From the NCBI GenBank assembly GCA_965237955.1, contig OZ250169.1:3072001-3136000 (forward strand): a stretch of 64,000 nt of DNA, in the 5' to 3' direction. A program made the position numbers and the translations under genes. Each line of letters starts with the position of its first letter. Positions within the stretch are counted from its first letter, which is position 1. A model generated the notes under the pieces. That model was not told the DNA's origin, did not search any database, and was given only the letters and a program-made list of their open reading frames with translations. Positions 8,436-27,908 of the stretch are shown here, piece after piece. The stretch is from Candidatus Marinacidobacterales bacterium (GTDB lineage Bacteria > Acidobacteriota > Vicinamibacteria > Marinacidobacterales > SMYC01).

Positions 8436-8601
8436 GGTGCTTGCGCCATTTACTGTTGGTGATGTGTGCGCATCCCTTTGCAAAAGAGGCGCTTACGCTC
8501 CATTTAGCGCGCAGCGAAGGTCGCGAGCGCTATTTTGGCTGTAATTTAATGCACCATATAGTCTTAGCGTCATCTCACCAACACTTGATGGCGGAAGCAC
8601 C
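8436..8601. mobile_element. 166-bp MITE with IS1-family IRs
   Basis: GGTGCTTGCGCCAT ... TTGATGGCGGAAGCACC; same IR as the IS1-family element at 14457-15653; copies at 28835-29000 and partial ~20320-20385. Confidence 0.85.
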
Positions 8602-10716: not shown

Positions 10717-12471
10717 CTATCCCTCTCCGTTTCTACCAAGGACTGTTCGTTCTTCATTTGAAAGGCGGTAGAGCTTGAAGGCTGCTGCATTGCACGCCAG
10801 CGTATCTCCACGTTTTGCTGCCGCAGTTAGCACTGTCTTAATCTCGGGAGGCACATCCTTCCAGCGCGGCAGGCGAATACGCCGGAGATACTGCGCCTGA
10901 AAGCGTAGATAACCGCCGCGCATCTGGGTTGAATAGATAGAGACAAACAGCCGGGCGACCCCGGATCGCAGGACTGCTTGTAGCGCTATCAAATCCCACT
11001 CATCGGACGTTATGAAATAGAGATTGTGGTGCGGGTAGAGCTGGCCGTTTTCATAGACGATATGGGCCTCACCCTTGATATCCGGGATGAGCAGCTTCGG
11101 TTTCTTCGCAAGAGTCGGATAAATCCGGTCAATGGTTCGATACCAATTTGCTGGAACCTTTTGGGCGATGTGGCGCTTGGCAATCTGGTCTTTGCGCGCT
11201 TCCAGATAACGTCTAAGCCTAGGATATTGGTCGAGCTTGACAAGTCCGTCTTCATCGTCAAACGGATTGACGATACCAAGGCCACGCCAATTGACCTCAC
11301 CGCTCAAGATATCGCGTGTCATAGCAAGGGGCAGTTTGCGATCTAGCTCTACGTCAAGCTCGTCATAGGGGCCGATAAAGGCCTTGTCTGCACCGGTCGC
11401 AACGCCGATGCCAACCTTGCATCCCGCGTCTTCAATGAGAGGAAAGTCGCGTTCAAAGCGGCGCACCAGAGCCAATTGTTCCAGAGATTCTAGTATCCAC
11501 GGTTCCGCACCCATCGCCACACCGGCAAGTTCTTTCACGAGGCTGTCTGGTTTGGGGGGTTGGATTGCCAGGAGTTCGCGGGTTAGGGCGCGCAGCACTT
11601 TTCTGGTGATCTCCGGTCGTCGGGCAATCCGGGTCTTACCAGGCTTTTCCCTGCCGATGATGGTGATGGCGGGATACGCGATCACGTTTTCATGGAAGGC
11701 CGGAGTATTCACCATGTCCACATAGGCTCTCAAATGAAAGCGCTCTGCAACCATCTGGCGTAACTGCCTGCCGTAACGGTTCTTCACCCAGCGGTCAGCA
11801 CAGATGAAACCGAGCACACCGCCTTTCGAGAGAAGGCTGAGCGAGCGCTCGATAAAGGGGATATATAGATCGGCCCGGTCAAAGATCGTGGTGTAGCGCG
11901 AGCGATATTCAGCAATCAGAGCGTCCGGAATTAGTTCCTGCCGAACATATGGGGGATTGCCGACGACATGATCGAATCTGCCCAGCAGCGGTGCCTGCAG
12001 GAAATCACCGCATATGAGCCAAGTCCCTGCAAGCTGCTCGGCGGTCTTAGGAGCAATCCCCTCTTGTGTGAGAAGGGCAATGACCTTCAGGCGCGTTGCG
12101 ACGTAAGAAGCCTTGTGCAGTTCCACCGCGCGAATGCTGTCCTTCAAGCTATCAAATACGTCATGCCTGCCGTCATGTCGTATCCACGCCTTGAGTAGGC
12201 GCTCGACAACGATGAGCAGAAAATCACCTTCTCCGAAAGACGGTTCTAGAATGCGGCGTTTGTATAAAGCCCTGTCGTGCGTGTAGCACAGCAGGTCGAG
12301 GATGAATTCGACGACCTCGGGCCGGGTGAAGATCGCCCCCCTTTCCTCAATGCCGGCAGCGGCGAGACCCTCCAACGCATCTTCAACCGGACACATGCCG
12401 GGCAACGAACCTTGGTGAAGATGTTGTTGAACTGGTTCAATCATTTCTGGAAGCGCCCTGCGCAACGCCAA
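10717..12471 (-). CDS. N6-adenine DNA methyltransferase (M.PaeR7I/M.XhoI-like, gamma class)
   Basis: [17 protein letters not shown] (motif I), VVGNPPYVR (motif IV), TaqI-C-like region KLLIPDIKG; true start may be ATG at 12444. Confidence 0.9.
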
Positions 12472-12729: not shown

Positions 12730-13814
12730 GGCGTTGTTGCACCGCTCTGGCTGAGAGCGAAATCCGCCTATGGTGGTGGCCGAGGTATGTTCGAGCATGA
12801 AGTATCCCAAGCGCTGCCAGTACAAGCACGCGAAGCAGAAGAAGTACCACGTTCGCAACTGGGCGGAATACAACGAAGGGCTGCGCCGCCGGGGCGATTT
12901 GACAGTCTGGTTTGACGAGGAGGCAATCGCGAACTGGAAGGCCGACAAGACCGGTAAGCCTGGCGGTCAACGGGTCTATTCAGACATGGCGATTGAAACG
13001 GGCCTGGTTGTCCGGATGGTGTACAAGCTCGCCTACCGACAAACCGAAGGCTTCTTGCACTCGATCGCCTCGCTTCTCGGACTCGGTATCGAGATCCCGG
13101 ACTACTCGACGTTGTGTCGGCGCTCGAGGTTGCTCCGCAAGAAGCTGCGGATTCCGAAAGCCGCGAGCACTCAACCCATCCACCTGATGATCGATAGCAC
13201 GGGCTTGAGGATTCATGTTGGAAACGCTCGCAAACCGCCAAAGCAGCGCGCATGGCGCAAGTTGCACATCGCCGTTGATCGCGAGACAGGGAACATTGTT
13301 GCGTCCAAACTGACGGCGTCACGAGCTCGCGACGCAACCCGAGTCCCCGCTTTGCTAACACAGATTCAAGCACCTCTAGTGTCGGTGGCGGCGGACAGTG
13401 CATACGACAAGGAAGCGGTCTACGAAGCCATCGAAGCGCACAGTCCTGGACGAAGGACGCGCGTGGTGATTCCGCCGCAACGAAACGCGACGCTCAGTCA
13501 GAATTCGAACACCGCCATGCAGGAGCGCGATCGCCATATTCGTGCAATCGAAAGACACGGCCGACGTGAATGGTACAAGCTCTCAGGCTACACCAAGCGA
13601 AGCATGGTGGAGAACGCGGTCTATCGTTACAAGGCGATCATCGGGCCGGAGATGCGGGCTCGAACGTTGGCGAGGCAACGAGTTGAACACCGAATTGGGT
13701 GCGAGATACTCAACAAGATGGCTGCGCTCGGGATGCCCGATACGTACTGCGCCGGGTGACTCTGCAACCGGCACAGGGAGGTCAGCGATTTGCTCCGGGC
13801 CGTGCAACAACGCC
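12730..13814 (+). mobile_element. IS5 family, IS903 group, copy 2
   Basis: Near-identical to 6729-7812 with the same IRs. Confidence 0.9.
12797..13759 (+). CDS. IS903-group DDE transposase
   Basis: Differs from copy 1 by two visible residues (ASE/ASK, RIE/RVE). Confidence 0.92.
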   Translation: MKYPKRCQYKHAKQKKYHVRNWAEYNEGLRRRGDLTVWFDEEAIANWKADKTGKPGGQRVYSDMAIETGLVVRMVYKLAYRQTEGFLHSIASLLGLGIEIPDYSTLCRRSRLLRKKLRIPKAASTQPIHLMIDSTGLRIHVGNARKPPKQRAWRKLHIAVDRETGNIVASKLTASRARDATRVPALLTQIQAPLVSVAADSAYDKEAVYEAIEAHSPGRRTRVVIPPQRNATLSQNSNTAMQERDRHIRAIERHGRREWYKLSGYTKRSMVENAVYRYKAIIGPEMRARTLARQRVEHRIGCEILNKMAALGMPDTYCAG

Positions 13815-14456: not shown

Positions 14457-15653
14457 GGTGCTTCCGCCATGAAGTGTTGGTGGCTGCCGCGTAACCCGTT
14501 CGCGTGCTAGAGTTTGAACCAGAATTCTGAAGACACAGTTCTCTCATCGTCAGGGCCGAGCCGAAGTGAAGAATAGCAGATGTCTCAATCCCGCATGTCC
14601 GTTGCGGGGCAAAGTCAGTTCCGGAAACATCGTTCGCCACGGATTCTACCGAACCAGGTCCGGGAAACGCCGTCGATACCGGTGCGGCGAGTGCGGAAAG
14701 ACGTTCTCCTCGACGAAAGGCACGCCCTACTACCGTCTCCAACATCGAAGAGCTACTTTCGATGGGGTCATCGCTCTCAGAGTCGAGGGTGTCAGCATTT
14801 CCTCGATTTCCCGGACCGAAGGGCTTGCCTGGAACACCGTCGCCCGCTGGCTCGAGAAGGCAGCCCAAGTGTGTCGTCGATTCAACCACACAAGGATCGC
14901 TGGCTTCGCTGCCGAAGAGCTTCAAGCCGACGAGATTCGCACGTTCGCGGGCGACAAGAAGACGCCGAGTTGGGTCTTCGTTACGATCGAGGTCTGGTCT
15001 CGGCTCTGGCCATCGACGGTGACGGGAAGGCGAAGCTACCGGAACACTCACGCTCTGTTTCACGACCTTTCGCGGCGGATGAATTTCGAGCGTCTTCCCT
15101 TGATCGTTACGGATGGATTCGAATTCTACCAGAAGGTCATCCGTCGCTTCTTCGGGCCAGCGTGTCTCTACGGCCAAGTCCTCAAAACTCGCAGGAACGA
15201 TCGTATCATCAAGGTCGAACGGAGAGCGCTGCACGGAGCCGCGTGGCGATTCGAAGACGCGCTCAATAACTCCGAGGACTCTTCGACATTGAACACGTCG
15301 TTCATCGAGCGGTTGAATCTGACCATCCGGCAAAGCTCGGCATACCTTTCGAGACGAACGCTTTCCCACGCTCGCTCGACGGAGAGGCTCGATGAGCACC
15401 TGGAGTTGCTCCGTTGCTATTACAACTTCGTCCGACCGCACGGAGCTCTGAAGTTCGGACGTGAGATCCGAACTCCGGCTATGCAGGCTGGTCTGACGAC
15501 GCGACGGCTCACCTTTCGAGACATCTTCTTGGCGACAACGATTCCTTTGTGGTTGCGGATCGAGGTTTTCCTGCTCACTAGGGCGCGCAACCCGGTCTCT
15601 TCCGCACCTGTACCACTGCCCGCAGCCGCGTAGCACTTGATGGCGGAAGCACC
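14457..15653 (+). mobile_element. IS1-family element, single ORF
   Basis: IRs GGTGCTTCCGCCATGAAGTG ... CACTTGATGGCGGAAGCACC. Confidence 0.85.
14566..15633 (+). CDS. IS1-family transposase
   Basis: Zn finger CxxxxC...CxxC, HTH, LQADE, IVTDG, TSFIERLNLTIRQ, YYNFVRPH, TPAM. Confidence 0.88.
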   Translation: MKNSRCLNPACPLRGKVSSGNIVRHGFYRTRSGKRRRYRCGECGKTFSSTKGTPYYRLQHRRATFDGVIALRVEGVSISSISRTEGLAWNTVARWLEKAAQVCRRFNHTRIAGFAAEELQADEIRTFAGDKKTPSWVFVTIEVWSRLWPSTVTGRRSYRNTHALFHDLSRRMNFERLPLIVTDGFEFYQKVIRRFFGPACLYGQVLKTRRNDRIIKVERRALHGAAWRFEDALNNSEDSSTLNTSFIERLNLTIRQSSAYLSRRTLSHARSTERLDEHLELLRCYYNFVRPHGALKFGREIRTPAMQAGLTTRRLTFRDIFLATTIPLWLRIEVFLLTRARNPVSSAPVPLPAAA

Positions 15654-18472: not shown

Positions 18473-18717
18473 TGCTTTACTCCATTCTCGAGGAAGTACC
18501 AGACCCGTGTTTAGGGAATGGCCTCAATCCTTGCGTTCTTCCTGGCTGCGGCTGCCTTGCGTCTTTGCTGCGTGATCTTCCAGTCCATCCCCGTATCGCT
18601 GTCGCGAAGACCTTTTGGTGCTTACGCCATCAAGTGATGGAATGGACTCCTCCGCTGACATAGACGGCATCGATGTGCCAAAGTCAGTCGAATACGCATC
18701 GAAAAGGAGGAGTCCGA

Positions 18718-19749
18718 ATGAAAGATACGACGATCGCTGTGGATCTTGCAAAGAACGTCTTCGAGATTGCCATCTCGGGAGAAGCGGGGAAGGTGTCCAA
18801 GCAACTCCGTGTGAGTCGACCCAAGTTGGTGTCGTTTTTTGCCAAACAGAGCGCTGCCACCGTGCTTCTCGAAGCCTGCGGCTCTGCTCACTTCTGGGCA
18901 AGGACGTTCCGAAGGTTGGGACACGACGTCGTCCTGCTCCCACCTCACCTCGTGAGGCCCTATCGACGCGGGAGCAAGAACGACCGCGCCGACGCCAAAG
19001 AGTTGCTCGAGGCCTACAGGAACGAGGAGATTCTTCCCGTGCCCATTAAGTCCGTGCACCAGCACAGCCTCGCCGCGCTCCATCGCCTGCGCTCAGGATG
19101 GCTCTCCACACGGACCGCACGCATCAATGCCGTACGCGGGATCCTGCGCGAACTCGGATTCATCATCCCAAAGGGCGCTCACTTCGTCGTGCCCGCCCTC
19201 TTCGAACTCGTCGAAGACGCTGATTCTGATTTGCCCGACGTGCTCCGTTCGCATCTCCGTGATGCCTGCTCCGAGATTCGAGAACTCAAGGACAAGTGCG
19301 CTGGCATCGAGCACGAGCTCAAGGCGCTCACCAAGCAGCTTCCTGAAGTCCAACGACTTCTCGCCATTCCCGGCATCGGACTTCTGACCGCGACCGCCAT
19401 CGTGGGCTTCGTCGGCGATCTTCGCCGCTTCCCATCGGGGCGCCGCTTCTCGAGCTACCTCGGCCTAGTTCCCAAGGAAAACTCCAGTGGCGACATTCGC
19501 CGCCTCGGACGCATCACCAAGCGTGGCGACTCCTACCTCCGTATGCTCCTCACCCAGGGCGGGCGCGCCGTGCTCCGCGCGGCGAACGTCAGTAAGAGCC
19601 CGCCCGACAAGCTCCGCGCCTGGGCTCGGAAGGTCCACCGCTCGCGGGGACACAACAAGGCCGTGATTGCTGTCGCCAACAAACTCGCCCGGATCGTCTG
19701 GGCCGTCTCCACCCGCGAGAGTGAATTCCAGTCGCCGATGGCCGCTTAG
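18718..19749 (+). CDS. IS110/IS1111 DEDD transposase (bridge recombinase)
   Basis: RBS AGGAGG; AVDLAK, LEACG, KNDRADA (D-E-D-D), IPGIG, YLGLVP..NSSG (catalytic Ser), GDSYLR, VANKLAR. Confidence 0.93.
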   Translation: MKDTTIAVDLAKNVFEIAISGEAGKVSKQLRVSRPKLVSFFAKQSAATVLLEACGSAHFWARTFRRLGHDVVLLPPHLVRPYRRGSKNDRADAKELLEAYRNEEILPVPIKSVHQHSLAALHRLRSGWLSTRTARINAVRGILRELGFIIPKGAHFVVPALFELVEDADSDLPDVLRSHLRDACSEIRELKDKCAGIEHELKALTKQLPEVQRLLAIPGIGLLTATAIVGFVGDLRRFPSGRRFSSYLGLVPKENSSGDIRRLGRITKRGDSYLRMLLTQGGRAVLRAANVSKSPPDKLRAWARKVHRSRGHNKAVIAVANKLARIVWAVSTRESEFQSPMAA

Positions 19750-19794
19750 ACTTAGAGGCTCCACTTTCGTGTTTTCCTTTTTCCCTTCCAAAAG

Positions 19795-19976
19795 AGGCTG
19801 CGACGATACCCATCCAACTGATGGCGTACCGGTCGGACCGGCGCGGGGTCAAGCCGATAGCAACACTGGCCCTAAGAGGTCGTTCAAAGTGATTGGCTCC
19901 TCGCGCGCGGATTTTCCATCATGGCCCGGAGCACCCAAGACGCTCCTCACTGAGGCCGAAGATACGTTTGCAGTCT
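19795..19976 (+). ncRNA. Predicted bridge RNA / seekRNA
   Basis: Two stem-bounded loops carrying segments that match the target (TAGCAACACT 19858-67; AAGTG 19887-91) and the circle junction (TTCCATCAT 19914-22; AGATAcG 19960-66). Transcript ends are approximate. Confidence 0.8.
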
Positions 19977-21002
19977 GACCCACTCGTCACGACGCGATGG
20001 ATGCGCAGCTTCGATGGAAGATTTATTAAGAAAGGGGCTTGACTAGAGGAGTCCAGATATGTTGCTACGCAGCATTTGAATGCTAGTGTCAGTTGGCCTG
20101 CCTGTGTCGGCGCACGCCAAATAAGTATGTGACGTGCACACAGAGACATCCTTGAAGGTGAGGCATCGCGTGGTCAGCCCAGCCGGCATCGCAGAAAGAA
20201 CTGCGTCTCTCGAAATCAAGCTCAAACTCTAGCACGAGAACGGGTTACGTGGCAGACACCAACACTTGCTTGCGGAAGCACCGCGTCCTGTGCCAAAACT
20301 CGGCTCTTTTGAAAGACCATGGCTGTAATTTCATGCACCGTGAAGTCTTAGCGTCATTTTACCAACACTTAATGGCGGAAGCACCCATGAGGTCTGTGTG
20401 AGCAGCAGGGCTACCCGATCGAACAACGGCTGCCTGACCAACAGTAGGATTTGCACATGGTACGTCATGATGGATCCGAAGATAACACCCTCGGGCCAGA
20501 CGATTGTAAAGCCCACAGCCCTTGGCACCGTCGCAAAACACAGACGCTAAGCTGCTGATTTATCGGCTATTTCAAGAGGGCCGAGTTTTGGCACAGGACG
20601 GGGAACAGGTTTATTGGCAGACCTATTCTTAGGCCGGCCAAGGAGCCACCGCTACCCCAAATTCAACATCCGGCGGGACATTCCCGTCCATTGGTACAAC
20701 ACGCAACGACTCTTGGAGCCGATCGGAAATGTCGCCCCGGTCGAGTACGAGATGAACTACTATCGATCGCAGGAAGGCTCGCTAGAGATGGCGAGACTCA
20801 ACTAAAGCAGTCTCCGGAAAACCCGGAGCGGTTCACCCGGGGCGGTTCAGTATCAGCAGATTGGCCCGCGGTGGGAAGGGCAAGGAAGTGACGGTCGTCA
20901 AGGGGAAAACCTTGCCGCCAGGTCCGACAAAAGGGACCACCTACAAACTCGTGGACGCGACGAAGAACAAGTCCGGGAGAGGAAAATAGAGGGGTTCGGA
21001 CA

Positions 21003-21992
21003 ATGGCCACGCTCTTCGGCGACTTTCGAGTCCGTATCGATCCATGGGAAGTCGACTACGGTGACCAGACGCCGCTGCTGTCGCTCGAGGCCCGCCCTGA
21101 TGAGCAGGTAGACCACGAAGTCGAAGTGTCCGATGGGCAGTGGTCGGCGCTCACCCCCTCAGACTCCACGGCAGTGCCCGAGCGTGTCGTGTTTGTCGAT
21201 GGGGTTCGTAGGCTCGAGGCGCGAGTTCACGCTCGTCAGGGAGAAAAGTTGATCTATGGCGGCTTTGGCAGTCACGCAGTCGGCGCTGTGGAGATTCACG
21301 ATTCCAAAGCGAGCTTCGGTGAAATCCGCGTTTTTCGCACCGCTGTACTTGGATCGGGCGAGCGCCTTCCTGCGCCGGTGCAGGTGCGTGAGGACCTCGT
21401 GTATGCAGCTGAGAGTACACCGACGACCGAAGTCGATGGACCGTTGCGCCACATCCAGAAAGCGATGCGCCTCGCCGAAGCCACACTCGCGCGAGACCTC
21501 TGCCGGGACGACACCCTCGCAATCATCGATGGACCGCTCAGCTTTGAGCCAGAACGGCGCGGCTTGGCGCTCGGCTACATCAAGCGCGTGCACCAGCTCT
21601 ACCTCCCCAATAAGTTCATCCCGCTGCTGGCAACCCTCTCGGCTGGCTCGCGCACACCGATGTTCACAATCCAGAGCGCCAAGGCTGGGTTCGCGAGGTA
21701 CGCGTGGTTCCAGCGACTTGCATATCCCGGTCCCGGTGCCACGGAGCTTCACGGCATCGTACGACTCGAGGCGGCTGCGGATGTCGGCTTCGATGTCGCA
21801 CGCGGTCTCGCGAACGCCGCCACCACTTGGCTCCCAAAGACGGCACCAAAGCGTGCGAGAGATCCGAGATCGCCCCAGAATCTTCTGCCGATCGGTGCGC
21901 TCGAACAGCGGCTGCGAGTCCAGCTCGGCGATGCACGACTGATTCGGCGATGGATCCAGACACTCGTCGCAAAGGAAGCTTCTTATGGCTGA
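21003..21992 (+). CDS. nurA: NurA-family 5'-3' nuclease
   Basis: VFVDGVRR, IIDGPL, GYIK, C-terminal PQNLLPIGALE; first gene of the herA-sbcD-sbcC operon. Confidence 0.75.
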   Translation: MATLFGDFRVRIDPWEVDYGDQTPLLSLEARPDEQVDHEVEVSDGQWSALTPSDSTAVPERVVFVDGVRRLEARVHARQGEKLIYGGFGSHAVGAVEIHDSKASFGEIRVFRTAVLGSGERLPAPVQVREDLVYAAESTPTTEVDGPLRHIQKAMRLAEATLARDLCRDDTLAIIDGPLSFEPERRGLALGYIKRVHQLYLPNKFIPLLATLSAGSRTPMFTIQSAKAGFARYAWFQRLAYPGPGATELHGIVRLEAAADVGFDVARGLANAATTWLPKTAPKRARDPRSPQNLLPIGALEQRLRVQLGDARLIRRWIQTLVAKEASYG

Positions 21993-23658
21993 ACAGGACA
22001 TTGCACCAAATATCCCCGTCGGAGTTGTGCTGGGGTCGATGGACGCCGGTCCGCTCGAGTTCTGGGTCGGGGTCACGGTTGGCAGCGTCGTTCAGCTCGA
22101 TGATCTCGTGGTGGTTGAAGCGAACGTGGGTGACGGCCGGACCGTGAGCTTCTTTGGCATCGTCGACATGGTCCGTAAGCGTTACGAGGGGGCCCAGTTC
22201 GATTCCGATGCGTTCCGCGCCTCCGAAGGAACGCTCCCAGTCGAGGTGTCCTACGCCGCGCATATCCAAGTGACCCGGGTTGATCCGGAGGTCTTCGTGC
22301 CCCCTCATCCTGGCACCGACGTTCGGATTGTGCGCGGCGAACAGTTCCAGCGCGCTCTCTTCATCGATAGAATGGAGAAAAAGGTCGTCATCGGCAGTAC
22401 ACGCACCGGCGAGACGGTCTATGCAAATTTTGAGTTCCTCGATGGCACGCGCGGCGCCCACGCGTCGATAAGTGGGATCTCTGGCGTCGCCACCAAGACC
22501 AGTTATGCGACGTTCCTCCTCTACTCGCTCTTTCACTCAGACGCCCTAGGTGCGGATCGCACCAACACCCGAGCGCTCATCTTCAACGTCAAGGGCGAGG
22601 ACCTTCTCTGGCTCGACAAAGAGAACATCCACGTAGACGAGGAGCTCACCGAGAGCTATCGCAGCCTTGGGTTACCGGCAGGACCGTTCGAGAGCGTCGG
22701 CTTCTTTGCGCCGACCCGACGGCACGGCGACGTCCTCATGCCTGATGTCGGCAGCCGCCACGAAGGTGTCCGGGCCTATGCCTGGACGCTACGGGAGTTC
22801 GCCCGCGATCGTTTACTGCGCTTTGTCTTCGCAGAGGCCGAGGACGCCCGATCCCAGTTGTCGTTCCTGATCTACCGTGTCGAGCGCGCGCTCGAGCGTG
22901 CCGCCCGCGAAGGGGACAAGGACGACCCCGGAATCGACGTCGATGGAAGGCGGATACAGAGCTTCGATGATCTGCTGGACCTTCTCGACGGCACTGCGCT
23001 GGATCCGATGGCGCGTAACGCCGCGCCAGGAACGTTGGATGCCTTTCGGCGCCGCCTTCACGGCACCGCGCAACACATGGGGCACCTGGTCCGCGGCGAC
23101 CGAGAGACTGCGCGTCATCGCATCGACTGGCAAGCGAACCAGGTTACCGTCGCGGATATCCATACGCTCCACCAAACGGCACAGATGTTCGTCGTCGGTG
23201 TACTTCTTAAGCGGATGATGCATGACAAAGAGACGCAGGGCACTGCCACGCCCCTCGTCTTCGTCGTCCTCGACGAGCTCAACAAGTACGCGCCGCGGTC
23301 GGGCTGGAGCCCAATCCAAGATGTTCTCCTCGACATCGCCGAACGCGGACGCTCTCTCGGAGTCTGTCTATTCGGTGCTCAACAGACAGCGAGCGAAGTT
23401 GAACGGCGCGTAGTCGCCAACGCAGCGCTCAAGGTCGTCGGACGTCTCGATGCGGCAGAGGCGGAGCGTGGCGAGTACGGCTTCCTGACTCGGGTGGCAC
23501 GGCAACGCGCGACGATGCTGTCGCCAGGCACGATGATCGTCACACAGCCGGAACTGCCAACCCCGGTTCTGCTGAAGTTCCCGTTCCCCTCGTGGGCGAC
23601 GCGACAGAGCGAGGTCAAGAACCCGGGTGGAGACGATGATCCCTTTGCCCGTACCTGA
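21985..23658 (+). CDS. herA: HerA-family ATPase/DNA translocase
   Basis: N-terminal HAS-barrel-like region, variant Walker A GISGVATKT, Walker B VVLDELNKYAP, ERGRSLG..LFGAQQ. Confidence 0.85.
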   Translation: MAEQDIAPNIPVGVVLGSMDAGPLEFWVGVTVGSVVQLDDLVVVEANVGDGRTVSFFGIVDMVRKRYEGAQFDSDAFRASEGTLPVEVSYAAHIQVTRVDPEVFVPPHPGTDVRIVRGEQFQRALFIDRMEKKVVIGSTRTGETVYANFEFLDGTRGAHASISGISGVATKTSYATFLLYSLFHSDALGADRTNTRALIFNVKGEDLLWLDKENIHVDEELTESYRSLGLPAGPFESVGFFAPTRRHGDVLMPDVGSRHEGVRAYAWTLREFARDRLLRFVFAEAEDARSQLSFLIYRVERALERAAREGDKDDPGIDVDGRRIQSFDDLLDLLDGTALDPMARNAAPGTLDAFRRRLHGTAQHMGHLVRGDRETARHRIDWQANQVTVADIHTLHQTAQMFVVGVLLKRMMHDKETQGTATPLVFVVLDELNKYAPRSGWSPIQDVLLDIAERGRSLGVCLFGAQQTASEVERRVVANAALKVVGRLDAAEAERGEYGFLTRVARQRATMLSPGTMIVTQPELPTPVLLKFPFPSWATRQSEVKNPGGDDDPFART

Positions 23659-23669
23659 GGAGTAACCCC

Positions 23670-24827
23670 GTGAAGATCGTGCACACAAGCGATTGGCACG
23701 TTGGGCGACGCTGGAAAGGCATCCAACGCATGGACGAAATGGAGGCCATCCTGGGGCAACTCGCGGATTTCATCGAGAAGGAGTCCGTCGATCTTGTCCT
23801 GCACACCGGTGACATCTTCGACAGCAGGAACCCACCGGCTGACGCCGAGCGTCTCGTCAACGAGTTCTTCGTTCGGATGGGCAAGGCGGGCGCCCATATG
23901 GTGTTGATCGCTGGAAACCACGATGATCCTCACCGGCTTGATGCGCGGGCACTATTGGCTGAGTTCACCAACGTGCAGATACTTGGACGGCCACGCCCAG
24001 CCAGCCGAGGCGGGGCGCGTACGATCGAGACCCGCAGCGGAGAGAGCGCGGTGGTGGCAGCGCTTCCCTTTGCCTCCGCTGGTGCATGGGTGTCAGCACT
24101 GGACCTCGCCGGCGACGAGGCGACGGCGCGCAGCAAGTACGCACGGATGTTCCAGCTCGCTGTCGAGAACCTCTGCGGCAGTTTCAGCGGCGACGCGGTC
24201 AACCTACTGATGGCGCACACCCACCTCGAAGGGGCCGTCTTCAGTGAGTCGGAGCGGCGTGTCCATGTCGCCGAAGACTGGGCGGCCACGCCGCAGACGC
24301 TTCCGTCGACGGCGGCCTATATCGCGCTGGGCCACATCCACAAGCCGCAGAAGGTGGCAGGGTCCCTGCCCGCGTACTACGCAGGCTCGCCATTGCAGCT
24401 CGATTTCGGAGAGGTCGGTCAAGAGAAATCCTTCGTCGTCGTCAATGCGACGCCAGGACGCCCCGCGCAGGTGGAACACTTGGCCTACGAAGGTGGTCGG
24501 CCGCTGCACGATGTCCATGCGACGCTGGCGGAGCTGGAGACTGAGGCGGACAAGCTCGGCAACGGATGCTGGTTGCGCGTCACGGTTCCGCTGACGGAGA
24601 AGGACCCGGACATCAGCCGCAAGGTGCGGGAGATCTTGCCGAACGCGCTGATCGTCAAGGTAGAGCTGCCGGGGACCAATGATGCTTCCGTCGAGCGGCT
24701 CCCAGCGAGCGCGTCTGTTCCCGAGCACTACAGCGCCTACCACCGAAAAGAGCACGACCGCGATCCTGATCCCACCGTCCTCGAAACGTTCCAACAGCTC
24801 TACGAGCAAAAGTCCGAGGAGGCCTGA
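23670..24827 (+). CDS. sbcD: SbcD/Mre11 nuclease
   Basis: HTSDWH, GDIFD, GNHD, AH, LGHIH phosphoesterase motifs. Confidence 0.92.
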   Translation: MKIVHTSDWHVGRRWKGIQRMDEMEAILGQLADFIEKESVDLVLHTGDIFDSRNPPADAERLVNEFFVRMGKAGAHMVLIAGNHDDPHRLDARALLAEFTNVQILGRPRPASRGGARTIETRSGESAVVAALPFASAGAWVSALDLAGDEATARSKYARMFQLAVENLCGSFSGDAVNLLMAHTHLEGAVFSESERRVHVAEDWAATPQTLPSTAAYIALGHIHKPQKVAGSLPAYYAGSPLQLDFGEVGQEKSFVVVNATPGRPAQVEHLAYEGGRPLHDVHATLAELETEADKLGNGCWLRVTVPLTEKDPDISRKVREILPNALIVKVELPGTNDASVERLPASASVPEHYSAYHRKEHDRDPDPTVLETFQQLYEQKSEEA

Positions 24828-24830
24828 GCG

Positions 24831-27800
24831 ATGCGCCCGATCTATCTCAGCGTCGAGGGCCTCGCGTGCTTCAAGGAAAAGCAGGAGATCGACTTCTCCG
24901 AGCTCGATCTTTTCGCGATCTCGGGTCCGACCGGGGCGGGCAAGTCCACGCTCCTTGATGCGATGTTGTTCGCGCTGTACGGCATCATCCCCCGCGTAGG
25001 AAAACAGGACCTCAAGGAGATGATCTCGGCAGCTCGGGACAGGGTAAGCGTCTTGTTCAAGTTCGATGTCGGCGATGAGCGGTTCCGGATCACCCGCACG
25101 TTGCGCAGGAAGGGACCGGCGACTGTTCGCCTGGAGAAGCACGACGGGGAGGACTTCAGCGAGAACGTCGCCGATCAGGTCCGGACGGCCGGTGACGAAG
25201 TCACGCGTATCCTTGGCCTCGCTGGTGATGCGTTTACTCAGGCTGTTGTGCTACCCCAGGGGCAGTTCGCCAGATTCCTCCAGGCCGTTCCTCGCGAGCG
25301 GCGCGGCATGCTTCGTACGCTGCTGCGCCTCGAAGTCTACGAGCGCATGCGGGATGAGGCCCAGCGTGTCTCCAGCACTAAGAAGACCGCCCGTGATTCC
25401 GCCCAGAAGCTATTGAGCAACGAGTACGATGGCGTCACCGACAAAGCACTCGCTGCACTCGAAGCGGAGTGGAAGCTGGTTGGCGAGAAGCTCGAAGAGC
25501 TGCGAAAGGAACGCGACGCTGCCCAGGAGCAGCTCACCAAGCTTCGCGCTCTGCACGCGAAGACCGATGAGCTCGGACAGAAAGAGGAGCGACTGGAAGA
25601 GTTGAACCAAGCGGCTGCTGAGATTGGCACGGCGAAGGCGGAGCTTGAGGCGGCAGGGCGGGCAGCGTCCCTCGTCGCGGTGCTCGAAGAGGCGACCCGT
25701 GCTGCGGACTACGCCAAGCAGGCCCGTGCTGAAGCCGATCAGGCAAGGATCGACCACGAAGGTGCGGTCAAGGCTCACAGTGGGAAGGAAGAGCTACTAC
25801 AAAAGGCCAACGCCGCGGCGGCCGAAGTCGCCCCGACACGGGAGAAGGTCGCAAGGCTCAACCAGATCCTCGGCCGCCTGCCTGAGCGCAACCGCCTGGC
25901 CGAAACCATCGAGCGGCAGCGGACCGATGTCGACACGATGAAGGCGAAGGTGGCTGGTCTGCGGCAAGACCTCGATGGTTTGAGCGAGACGCAGCGCGCG
26001 CAGCTCACGACCACAGAGGCGGCGCGCACGACGCTCGAAGGTATCAGCTACGACGCGGACCTGGATGTCTCTCTGGAGAAGGTCCGTGACCTCGCAGCCA
26101 AGCTCTCGGTCGCCCGCGAGGGGCTGAAAACGGCTACAGATGAGAAGGCGAAACGGCAGAAGGCAATGGCCGAACTCATCGGCCGCATCGAGTTCCTCGA
26201 GCGCGAGGCGAAGGGTGCGAGCCAGGTCGAGGCCGAGGCTCAAAAGGCGGCAGACGCAGCGGACCAGGCAGTTCACGACGCCCATCGCATGGATGAAGCG
26301 AACCACCTGCGCGAATCCCTGGCAGCCGGGGAATTGTGTCCGGTCTGCGATCAGGTTGTGAAGGATCCGCCGCCGGCTGACCTGCGTCCCGAAGTCGAGA
26401 AAGCGAAGACCAGCCGCGAAGAGACCGCCTTCAAGCTCAAGAATGCCCAGAAGAAGGCCCGAGAGAAGCACGAGGTTCTAACACGAGAGCAAGGAAACGC
26501 CGACGCTGCCCAACGCGCACGCGACGAAGCTAACGCTGCCCACAAGAACGCGCTGGAAGCGGTTGCCGGACAGGAAGTTGATATACGGACTCGCCTCGAT
26601 GGCCGCGGCCCGAAGGGCGATCAAGGCATCGAAGTGTGGGTTGAGGAGCACGTCCGGGCATCATCCAACGCGCGAAAAGCCTACGAAGCGGCGAAGCAGA
26701 AGCTCGAACGGGCGGAGCGCAATCTCACCAAGGCAAAGGAGACCGAGAAGGCGACGAAGGAGAAGATCGACGAAACGAACATGGCACTGCGCAAGCTCGA
26801 GGGGGAGCTGAAGGACAACGAGCGTTGCTTGGAGGCGCTTCAGAAAAAGATCAGCGAGGTCACACACTCGCCGGATCCGGAAGCAGAGCGCGATGGCCTG
26901 GTCGGCAAGATTACAGACCTCGAGTCCGAGCAGAAATGCGCCGCCGAGGCAGTGGCGAACACCAAGAACCAGCTCACGGCGGCGGAGCAAGCTCTGAAGC
27001 TGAAGACGAAGGCAGCAAAGGAAGCCGAAGAGGGCGCAGTGCAGCGGCAAAAGACACGTGATGAACGCGTCGCTCAGGCTGGCTTCCAGAACGCGCGTGC
27101 CATCGAAGAAGCCGTGCGTAACGATGAGGTCCAGGCTGATCTTCGCGAAAAGATGCAGGCCCACGAGCGCGAGCTGCACACGGTCGAACAGCGCATCAAC
27201 ACCCTCAAGAAAGAGCTGGGCACCGAGCGGGTTTCGAAGGACCAGCTTGAGAACGCCAGCAAGCGAGCCACCGATCTCAGCGAGGAGGTCGAGACGGTCG
27301 TCGGGCGCGGCAAGAAGTTGGAGCACCAAGTCGAGAGCATGAAGCAGCGCCTCAAACGGTCAAAGGAGCTACGCGAGGAGCTTCAAGCGGAGGAGGAGGG
27401 CTATCGGTTGTACAACCACCTCGCAGCGGATCTGCGCAGCGACAAGTTCCAGGCCTATGTCCTCGAGGAGGCGTTCACGGAGCTCGTTCGGGGCGCTTCG
27501 ACCCGCCTGCTTGTCCTGACACGGGAGCGCTACTCGCTGGAGTTCGCCGAGGATCAGATCGTCGTTGTCGACCACGACAATGCCGGCGAGACCAGGATCA
27601 GCGACACCCTGAGCGGCGGTGAGACCTTTCTGACCTCTCTGTCCCTCGCGCTCGAACTTAGCGAGCAGGTCCAGCGCGCCGCGGGAGCCGTGAACCTGGA
27701 TAGCCTCTTCATCGATGAGGGCTTCGGCACGCTCGATCCGGACACCTTGGCCGTCGTGTCGGAGACGATACAGAGCCTTCAGGTGGGCGGGCGAATGGTC

Positions 27801-27908
27801 GGCATCATCACGCACATCCCGGAGCTCCGGGATGAGTTCTCGCAGCAGATCCTTGTGACGAAGCATGAGGGCTACTCGACGGTTGAGGTCCGGCCCCGGT
27901 CGACGTAG
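24831..27908 (+). CDS. sbcC: SbcC/Rad50 SMC-family ATPase
   Basis: GPTGAGKST, LPQGQF Q-loop, coiled coil with CPVC zinc hook, LSGGE, LFIDEGFGTLD, ITH. Confidence 0.93.
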   Translation: MRPIYLSVEGLACFKEKQEIDFSELDLFAISGPTGAGKSTLLDAMLFALYGIIPRVGKQDLKEMISAARDRVSVLFKFDVGDERFRITRTLRRKGPATVRLEKHDGEDFSENVADQVRTAGDEVTRILGLAGDAFTQAVVLPQGQFARFLQAVPRERRGMLRTLLRLEVYERMRDEAQRVSSTKKTARDSAQKLLSNEYDGVTDKALAALEAEWKLVGEKLEELRKERDAAQEQLTKLRALHAKTDELGQKEERLEELNQAAAEIGTAKAELEAAGRAASLVAVLEEATRAADYAKQARAEADQARIDHEGAVKAHSGKEELLQKANAAAAEVAPTREKVARLNQILGRLPERNRLAETIERQRTDVDTMKAKVAGLRQDLDGLSETQRAQLTTTEAARTTLEGISYDADLDVSLEKVRDLAAKLSVAREGLKTATDEKAKRQKAMAELIGRIEFLEREAKGASQVEAEAQKAADAADQAVHDAHRMDEANHLRESLAAGELCPVCDQVVKDPPPADLRPEVEKAKTSREETAFKLKNAQKKAREKHEVLTREQGNADAAQRARDEANAAHKNALEAVAGQEVDIRTRLDGRGPKGDQGIEVWVEEHVRASSNARKAYEAAKQKLERAERNLTKAKETEKATKEKIDETNMALRKLEGELKDNERCLEALQKKISEVTHSPDPEAERDGLVGKITDLESEQKCAAEAVANTKNQLTAAEQALKLKTKAAKEAEEGAVQRQKTRDERVAQAGFQNARAIEEAVRNDEVQADLREKMQAHERELHTVEQRINTLKKELGTERVSKDQLENASKRATDLSEEVETVVGRGKKLEHQVESMKQRLKRSKELREELQAEEEGYRLYNHLAADLRSDKFQAYVLEEAFTELVRGASTRLLVLTRERYSLEFAEDQIVVVDHDNAGETRISDTLSGGETFLTSLSLALELSEQVQRAAGAVNLDSLFIDEGFGTLDPDTLAVVSETIQSLQVGGRMVGIITHIPELRDEFSQQILVTKHEGYSTVEVRPRST

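Follow-up and report, generated by a model that had tools for sequence, protein, structure and literature searches.

The insertion sequences IS4321 and IS5075, of the IS1111 family, reportedly insert at a fixed base of the terminal inverted repeat (IR) of Tn21-family transposons, an observation said to go back to Partridge and Hall in 2003; homing on transposon ends is said to be already known from these two elements. IS1111-type elements usually carry sub-terminal IRs of 11-13 bp, set back from the ends by extensions of 7 bp on the left and 3 bp on the right (PMC11187229). ISPa25 and ISPa21 belong to the attC-targeting group of this type (PMC11187229 and PMC3001079), and ISEc11 and ISXne4, a pair 72% identical, are described as having conserved stems, changed guides and different targets (PMC11187229). 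In titles and abstracts of the literature, we found no IS110/IS1111 element in the IRs of IS1-family elements and no switch from attC to an IR; subscription papers, ISfinder and supplements (e.g. the target tables of PMC11187229 and PMC11208160) may hold one.

Here, we analyse an insertion sequence in a 64,000-nucleotide stretch of the genome of a Candidatus Marinacidobacterales bacterium (contig OZ250169.1 of assembly GCA_965237955.1; hereafter ‘the window’). We are confident that it is an IS1111-type element of the attC-targeting ISPa25 lineage, located at a single fixed position in the right IR of an IS1-like family, that it is likely guided by an RNA from its 3′ end, and that its target loop was likely rewritten from that of an attC-reading ancestor. 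The mechanism is known; what is new is the likely switch from attC to the end of an insertion sequence, with both states in one genome. A first-pass annotation of the window, made from the sequence alone, had drawn attention to the element; its observation is real and well supported, with corrections to the ends, core, host and intactness given below, and kinship with the attC-targeting ISPa25 was absent from its reading.

The closest named relatives, as the best named plasmid hits, are ISPa25 (46.6% protein identity) and the ISPa21 family (42.5%). With ISPa25, ISKpn4, ISPa21 and ISPst6, the element has in common the layout of the 3′ RNA, a guide start of the ATAAC/ATAGC type and one sister copy in attC; these four target attC, whereas the main allele here targets the IS1-like right IR, with a target arm one to two bases shorter in the same 11-nt loop. 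IS4321 and IS5075 are alike in being IS1111-type elements at a fixed base of another mobile element's IR; they target the Tn21-family IR, whereas here the site is a 23-bp IS1-like IR, used at the right end only and mostly in MITEs. The likeness to IS621 lies in the DEDD and Ser residue set and in a target loop followed by a donor loop with two guides each (PMC11208160, PMC11208158 and PMC13626964), and handshake-like positions here match post-insertion junctions too (PMC11208158). Unlike in IS621, the RNA lies 3′ of the ORF, there are 10-bp sub-terminal IRs, and the donor and target dinucleotides of homologues need not match; the IS621 recombinase aligns significantly over the C-terminal domain only (E 2e-8). 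Compared with ISEc11 and ISXne4, the two alleles described here have 92.7% identity, occur in one genome and switch between two classes of mobile-element site.

The element and its recombinase

The element spans 18635..20059 of the window on the forward strand (1425 bp, TGATGGA... to ...CCAGATA) and has no target duplication. Its ends are set by homologues, in which the left end is a constant TG and the right-junction dinucleotide varies; at 46-79% identity, the left end is nearly always TGAT, and the right end is CCAGATA followed by the CG or CC of the target. The first 18 bases of ISPa25 are identical to the left end. From the ends of the homologues, the left end of ISPa25 and the IS1111 extension rule, the element is 18635-20059, and the presence of TG at both junctions is therefore coincidental. 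The boundaries first proposed, 18637-20061, are equivalent in sequence, but homologues put the crossover two bases further left. Removal of 18637-20061 does yield the uninterrupted sequence that had been claimed, and one public contig, from run X16, carries the empty allele, in which 18634 is joined to 20060 (75 + 61 bases, 0 differences, the unique left flank of the locus included).

The sub-terminal IRs, as read from the sequence, are TGGACTCCTC at 18643..18652 (forward strand), after the terminal extension, and GAGGAGTCCA at 20046..20055 (forward strand). They are perfect over 10 bp with one further mismatched position (11 bp in the 91% sister copy considered below), and the extensions, TGATGGA on the left and ATA on the right, have the 7 bp and 3 bp of the IS1111 rule. 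Non-coding sequence amounts to 310 bp 3′ of the ORF and 83 bp 5′ of it, and the top-strand match precedes the bottom-strand match, which is the IS1111 order (PMC11187229). The genome copies, the homologues and the empty allele agree in having no target duplication, a single site and a single orientation, as is typical of IS1111 elements.

The recombinase (18718..19749, forward strand, 343 aa) had been assigned to IS110/IS1111, and this assignment stands: it scores 305 bits against the IS110-family model NF033542 (cut-off 140), and PF01548 and PF02371 are both detected, giving the DEDD RuvC domain and the Transposase_20 domain with catalytic Ser that define the group. D9, E52, D89, D92 and S257-G258 are all present and align with the catalytic residues of IS621. 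The description of the enzyme as intact is put in doubt by a private substitution: the window copy alone, against all 15 near-identical sisters, has A for C at 19001, producing A95E at a position that is Ala or Gly in 51 of the 52 recombinase homologues over which residue columns were counted. Every public run covering position 19001 has C there. The window copy may be impaired, or E95 may be a consensus error; sister copies could provide the protein in trans. A single-sequence AlphaFold model (pLDDT 39) was discarded.

TTGACT at 20039..20044 (forward strand), picked out by eye, is the predicted -35 box of a circle-junction promoter; a promoter scan of the linear element found no promoter-like site. 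The circle joint (right end to left end) was not seen in the contigs of eight of the 24 listed runs, and contigs drop rare forms. RNA runs X15, X16 and X17 cover only parts of the element, in a patchy way and possibly from DNA.

Insertion sites in this genome and its relatives

Seventeen full-length copies are present in the genome, 16 of them at 97.8-100% identity and one at 91%. When the flanks of the genomic copies are aligned, the proposed target recurs: 25 of 26 left junctions genome-wide read TCAAG^TG (the caret marks the insertion point), the base being identical each time and lying in an IR or a site resembling it. The right junctions read TGTTGCTA in 18 of 25 cases, six more are internal tandem joints, and one belongs to the 91% copy in attC; among the 18 occupied right junctions, 16 are MITE-type and two autonomous-type. 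Insertion at CAAG^TGTTGCTA is site-specific, in a single orientation and without duplication. The occupied hosts have diverged from one another (median identity 72%, over 120 bp at 17 sites) and 13 of 15 sister copies have 1-3 base differences; near-identical copies in diverged hosts point to independent recent insertions.

There are 206 IR-like sites in the genome, 21 occupied and 185 empty; none of the empty ones reads CAAG^TGTTGCTA, and one reads AAG^TGTTGCTA. Three AAGTGTTGCTA sites are empty genome-wide, one of which, at C1:234169 (AAAG^TGTTGCTAC), lies outside any IR and matches the RNA fully. Because this fully matching site is empty, and because all occupied sites have C at the position where the RNA carries A, something beyond the guide may count in site choice.

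Close relatives of the element, with unchanged target guides, occur in eight of the 55 genomes of Candidatus Marinacidobacterales (five genera, one by weak matches only). Their left junctions lie in the IR in 56 of 62 cases (loci L001-L074 except L047 and L052), and the six outside it all come from one genome, G002, and still end in AAG or GAG. Five relative genomes have 67, 0, 22, 14 and 52 empty IR sites (G002 alone has none) and, by the strict pattern, 33, 3, 11, 4 and 5 occupied ones, in the same order. One of 52 right junctions in the close relatives reads as a left IR (L001). In the relative G001, an identical allele of the element occurs in different hosts.

The IR-associated copies could in principle all descend from one old insertion that its host spread passively, with no repeated guided insertion, and four copies with both flanks in common are indeed segmental duplicates. 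Such a history is highly improbable, as near-identical elements sit in diverged MITE and autonomous hosts, one allele in G001 occurs in different hosts, the G002 insertions outside IRs keep their AAG or GAG, and run X16 holds the exact empty allele. The discordance between hosts and insertion sequences already largely refutes it.

The host family and the effect of insertion

In the window, the host is a MITE of 241 bp when empty. The outer 18 bp of its right IR (18617..18634, forward strand), ending in CAAG, make up the left arm of the target; the remainder (20060..20282, reverse strand) comprises the inner right IR, the body and the left IR, which ends at 20282. The first 89 bp of the MITE are 83% identical to the left end of an IS1-like element, and copies of the MITE family are 79-95% identical. 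The host is a derivative of the IS1-like element and not an autonomous IS1.

An autonomous IS1-like element, owner of the targeted IR family, lies at 14457..15653 (forward strand; ORF 14566-15633), and its right IR is short of 3 bp at the target. The IR (23 bp) is common to this element and its MITEs, the right IR being marked by TTGCTA and the left IR by TTGGTG or TTGGCG. The best family for the ORF is IS1, by model NF033558 (E 5e-22, 78.8 bits against a cut-off of 100); against PF03400 it scores 21.2 (cut-off 24.1), and its plasmid relatives are 27-31% identical, with an IS1 annotation in three of the 12 matches listed. The first-pass annotation had named an IS1 terminal IR as the target, and repeated insertion in an IS1-like IR bears this out, but the right IR alone is used, the hosts are mostly MITEs, and the family falls under the curated IS1 cut-offs.

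IS1 elements generate target duplications of 8-9 bp. In this genome, none was present around any paired host, empty or occupied, and a search for shuffled duplication partners between host ends returned only repeat-derived matches. Another MITE-like family shares the IR of the host family (TTGGTGA/TTGGTAA type; window 20320-20400, 8436-8601 and 29000) and is never occupied; one of its subtypes always follows the same 15-bp flank.

The crossover falls after base 18 of the IR, and the TGATG of the element restores bases 19, 20, 22 and 23, giving 22 of 23 IR bases. The insertion site lies 3′ of the host ORF and mostly in MITEs. Given the restored IR bases and a site 3′ of the ORF, the disabling of host ends that had been proposed is not evident from these sequences. 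A reading closer to that proposal holds that the element suppresses the IS1-like family by breaking the right IR and immobilizing the host, and that hosts with mutated targets are escapees. We regard this as rather unlikely, though several observations speak for it. Every CAAG^TGTTGCTA IR site in the genome is filled, insertion displaces three IR bases and the sub-terminal region 1.4 kb inward, and, of the three full-length IS1-like ORFs in the genome, one is occupied and two have altered targets; full saturation here, with altered targets in two of the three full-length hosts, leaves room for suppression and escape. Against it stand the MITE-type of 16 of the 18 occupied right junctions, the 22 of 23 IR bases in the hybrid end, the unaltered host ORF, the 67 empty sites beside 33 occupied ones in G001 and, weakly (n = 2), two diverged IS1-like ends that lack IR bases 21-23 at different flanks. 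The IR family is instead likely to serve the element as an abundant and harmless landing pad, given the left end that restores the IR bases and a site downstream of the host ORF, and the element may ride along.

Two diverged IS1-like right ends (window 15634-15653 and C1:7995414) share the 3-bp deletion at the target site, which could be an escape allele or the footprint of imprecise excision.

The predicted RNA and its guides

The core of a predicted bridge/seek RNA (19831..19980, forward strand), delimited in a 24-sequence alignment, comprises a closing helix, a target-binding loop and a donor-binding loop. All four guides lie on the forward strand. The first target guide loop (19857..19867, 11 nt, ATAGCAACACT) is the LTG when the DNA is read on the opposite strand, and covaries with the right flank; the second target guide (19886..19893) reads AAAG-TG plus AT, the AT matching the left-end junction as a predicted handshake, by comparison with PMC11208158. 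The first donor guide (19914..19922, TTCCATCAT) is complementary to the left end, and the second (19960..19968) reads AGATA-CG plus TT, with TG for CG in the 94% clade. The guides are thus complementary to both target arms and both element ends, and they change with the targets. The four motifs are present where the first-pass annotation had placed them, and its predicted 3′ bridge RNA with four guides is supported.

When the 3′ non-coding region was shuffled 100,000 times, TAGCAACACT appeared 14 times and TTCCATCAT 85 times, as against 20,763 times for AAGTG and 23,600 times for AGATATG (at most one mismatch); the first three guide motifs never appeared in order (0/100,000). The two long guides are far beyond chance, and the two short guides are supported by position and covariation. 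Covariation was assessed on hand-picked representatives of 25 distinct target loops, of which 16 were taken and 14 were usable per test. Exact matches between the first guide and its own right flank run for 7.57 bases on average (4.10 in shuffles). The second guide matches its own left flank at 3.71 of 5 positions (1.58 in shuffles). Either value was reached in 0/20,000 shuffles, which is no strict probability as the rows are mutually related. The correspondence between guides and targets therefore extends to the homologues.

Pairing in a six-helix structure, which was drawn from the window sequence, amounts to 89.9% across the 24 sequences (31-48% in slid controls), and 21 of its 34 pairs show two-sided (compensatory) changes. 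The single-sequence fold of the region has z = -1.9, and an Rfam search of the region gave no match up to E 1. The stem AGCCGAT/ATTGGCT proposed at first is over-extended: only AGCCG/TGGCT is conserved as paired, and the adjoining bases are part of the guides. The loop that follows, 11 nt long in most rows, accommodates target arms of 7 to 9 bases. Bases after the second and fourth guides (AT and TT) match the post-insertion junctions, as handshake guides would; handshake covariation in the donor loop is weak (0.76 versus 0.52 matches, 646/20,000 shuffles, with related rows).

The junction dinucleotide and a recombination model

A TG/CA core common to donor and target had been thought to be required, a view that the homologues do not support: they insert at CG, CC, GG or AG and keep TG at the left end only. 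In the close clade, the right-junction dinucleotides are 48 TG, 2 AG, 1 GG and 1 CG (n = 52). The left TG is the element's own, with no need for a shared TG core; the identical 2-nt core of donor and target that the IS621-type model involves is not kept in the homologues, and the TG match at this locus is coincidental. The CG in the last guide, which the first-pass annotation had counted as a mismatch, agrees with the dinucleotide of the target in 16 of 25 rows and with TG in one of 25; CG is the ancestral state, changed to TG in the 94% clade. It could reflect pairing with the incoming target strand after exchange (PMC11208158) and would also fit top-strand-only integration (10.1101/2025.10.25.684509).

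By analogy with IS621, ISEc11, ISKpn4 and CazIS110, the element would form a circle, by copying or by excision, with a promoter created at the circle junction, and a recombinase tetramer would pair the circle junction with the target via the RNA. One strand would then be broken at the same side of the central dinucleotide in circle junction and target, and joined; such a single-side break would always leave the element's TG at the left junction and the target's dinucleotide at the right. The preference for right ends would follow from the last three guide-read bases (CTA), which lie just inside the 23-bp IR and differ between the two ends of the host.

A sister copy in attC and the origin of the lineage

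The 91% sister copy (C1:5245814-5247238; recombinase protein 92.7% identical) has the guide ATAACAATCGT and the site CTCCAG^TGATTGTTATCC, at the end of a 114-bp attC-like palindrome with matching R′′ and R′ boxes. The bottom strand of the palindrome folds at -22.6 kcal/mol (0/300 shuffles). At least five members of its family are empty, and the guide of the 91% copy does not match their spacers. The genome encodes an integron integrase above cut-off (C1:3346207-3347146), and attC sites of one family are scattered far away from it (C1:5241297-5247340, 5400325-5402646, 6379892-6384696 and 7297177).

Insertion in attC, the trait of the IS1111-attC group, is seen in this sister alone, 25 of the 26 copies lying in IS1-like IRs; descent from the group holds, and functional membership does not. 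Among 20 homologue sites, 15 have GTT just right of the junction, five have a matching R′′ upstream, and five have neither. As five sites are without GTT and a matching R′′ is present in five only, the wider group appears to have several targets. Loci L091, L078, L106, L111, L119 and L120 have guides that match targets without the GTT motif, further natural retargetings in the lineage. A decayed fragment (77%) of a related element, with part of the target loop, lies at C1:5560833-5561020.

Over the guide-read stretch, two substitutions and one indel separate the attC site from the IS1-like IR. Between the main and sister RNAs, the first loop has four base differences and the second loop about four. 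In a recombinase tree rooted on ISPa21-family rows, the IS1-IR copies and the attC copy form a clade (0.991) whose sister, L077 (1.0), has an attC-type guide. The attC copy falls outside the IS1-IR clade in the protein tree (0.776) and is nested inside it in the DNA tree (bootstrap 64). Since attC-like motifs flank the element in most outgroups as well, the lineage likely targeted attC at first and acquired its present site through about eight changes in the guides; attC ancestry is the parsimonious reading.

For the sister copy itself, the direction might be reversed: the clade would already have been IS1-targeting, and the attC copy would be a reversion, or a recombinant with an acquired attC-type loop. 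Besides its nesting in the DNA tree, the copy pairs a left-end allele found in one subclade with a donor guide found in the other, and it is the sole such allele in the 55 genomes of the order. The protein tree, which keeps the copy outside, and the likeness of ATAACAATCGT to the guides of the nearest outgroup, L077 (ATAACACTCGT), and of ISPa25 speak against the reversal, which we consider unlikely and which would change how this single copy arose and leave the attC ancestry of the lineage as it is.

Tandem ends and neighbouring features

In six cases the right end is joined to an internal position (19587, 19664, 19722 or 19768), with the whole predicted RNA duplicated, and a similar joint, to 19527, occurs in run X15; one-sided products of this kind have been described (10.64898/2026.08.14.744561 and 10.64898/2026.08.31.748434). 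These 3′-end duplications (predicted RNA plus right end) comprise up to three extra units (C1:1133671-1135435, 3027298-3029199, 3051910-3054422 and 7863073-7864837), and a 338-bp unit is identical in two different hosts, which suggests that the element moved as a whole after its enlargement. Left-flank tandem repeats of 16 and 48 bp stop exactly at the insertion point (C1:2861921-2862100 and 2974140-2974176), as a mirror of the right-end duplications.

In four genomes, a repeat starting CCCGTCCTGTGCCAAAAC (window 20284-20610; C1:480062 and 3660553; L065, L066 and L068) truncates the IS1111 element at an identical base (about 305). This repeat, which often lies directly against the IS1-like MITE, may be another site-specific element. 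The genome also has several copies of a second IS110-family element, a distant one (28% identity), at C1:4337923-4338396 and eight similar places. Elsewhere in the window, 12770-13759 encodes an IS5-family transposase, 10717-12471 an adenine methyltransferase-like ORF with weak PglX matches, and 21003-27908 a run of four genes, the last two being sbcD and sbcC. The first two ORFs of this run, with no NCBIfam match at 1e-5, look by eye like a NurA/HerA-like pair.

Implications

We tentatively propose, as a possibility to which we give somewhat less than even weight, a natural host switch within one genome. An attC-homing, RNA-guided insertion sequence would have rewritten about eight guide bases and exchanged integron cassettes for a new site, the right end of a prolific IS1-like/MITE family, where it would rebuild the end and ride along; it would have spread with this host over four genera, spilling to non-IR sites once the IRs are full.

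Two alleles of one recombinase (92.7% identical, with the same donor loop) that have different natural target classes make the guide rules readable. The locus favours IS1111 ends made by a single break without duplication over a strict shared core, which bears on the programming of IS1111-type editors. If the proposed switch is true, the allele pair would be a ready test of the need for attC structure, of slack in the guide register and of recombination without a matched core. The locus also illustrates how a few point mutations can change which mobile element an RNA-guided element exploits.
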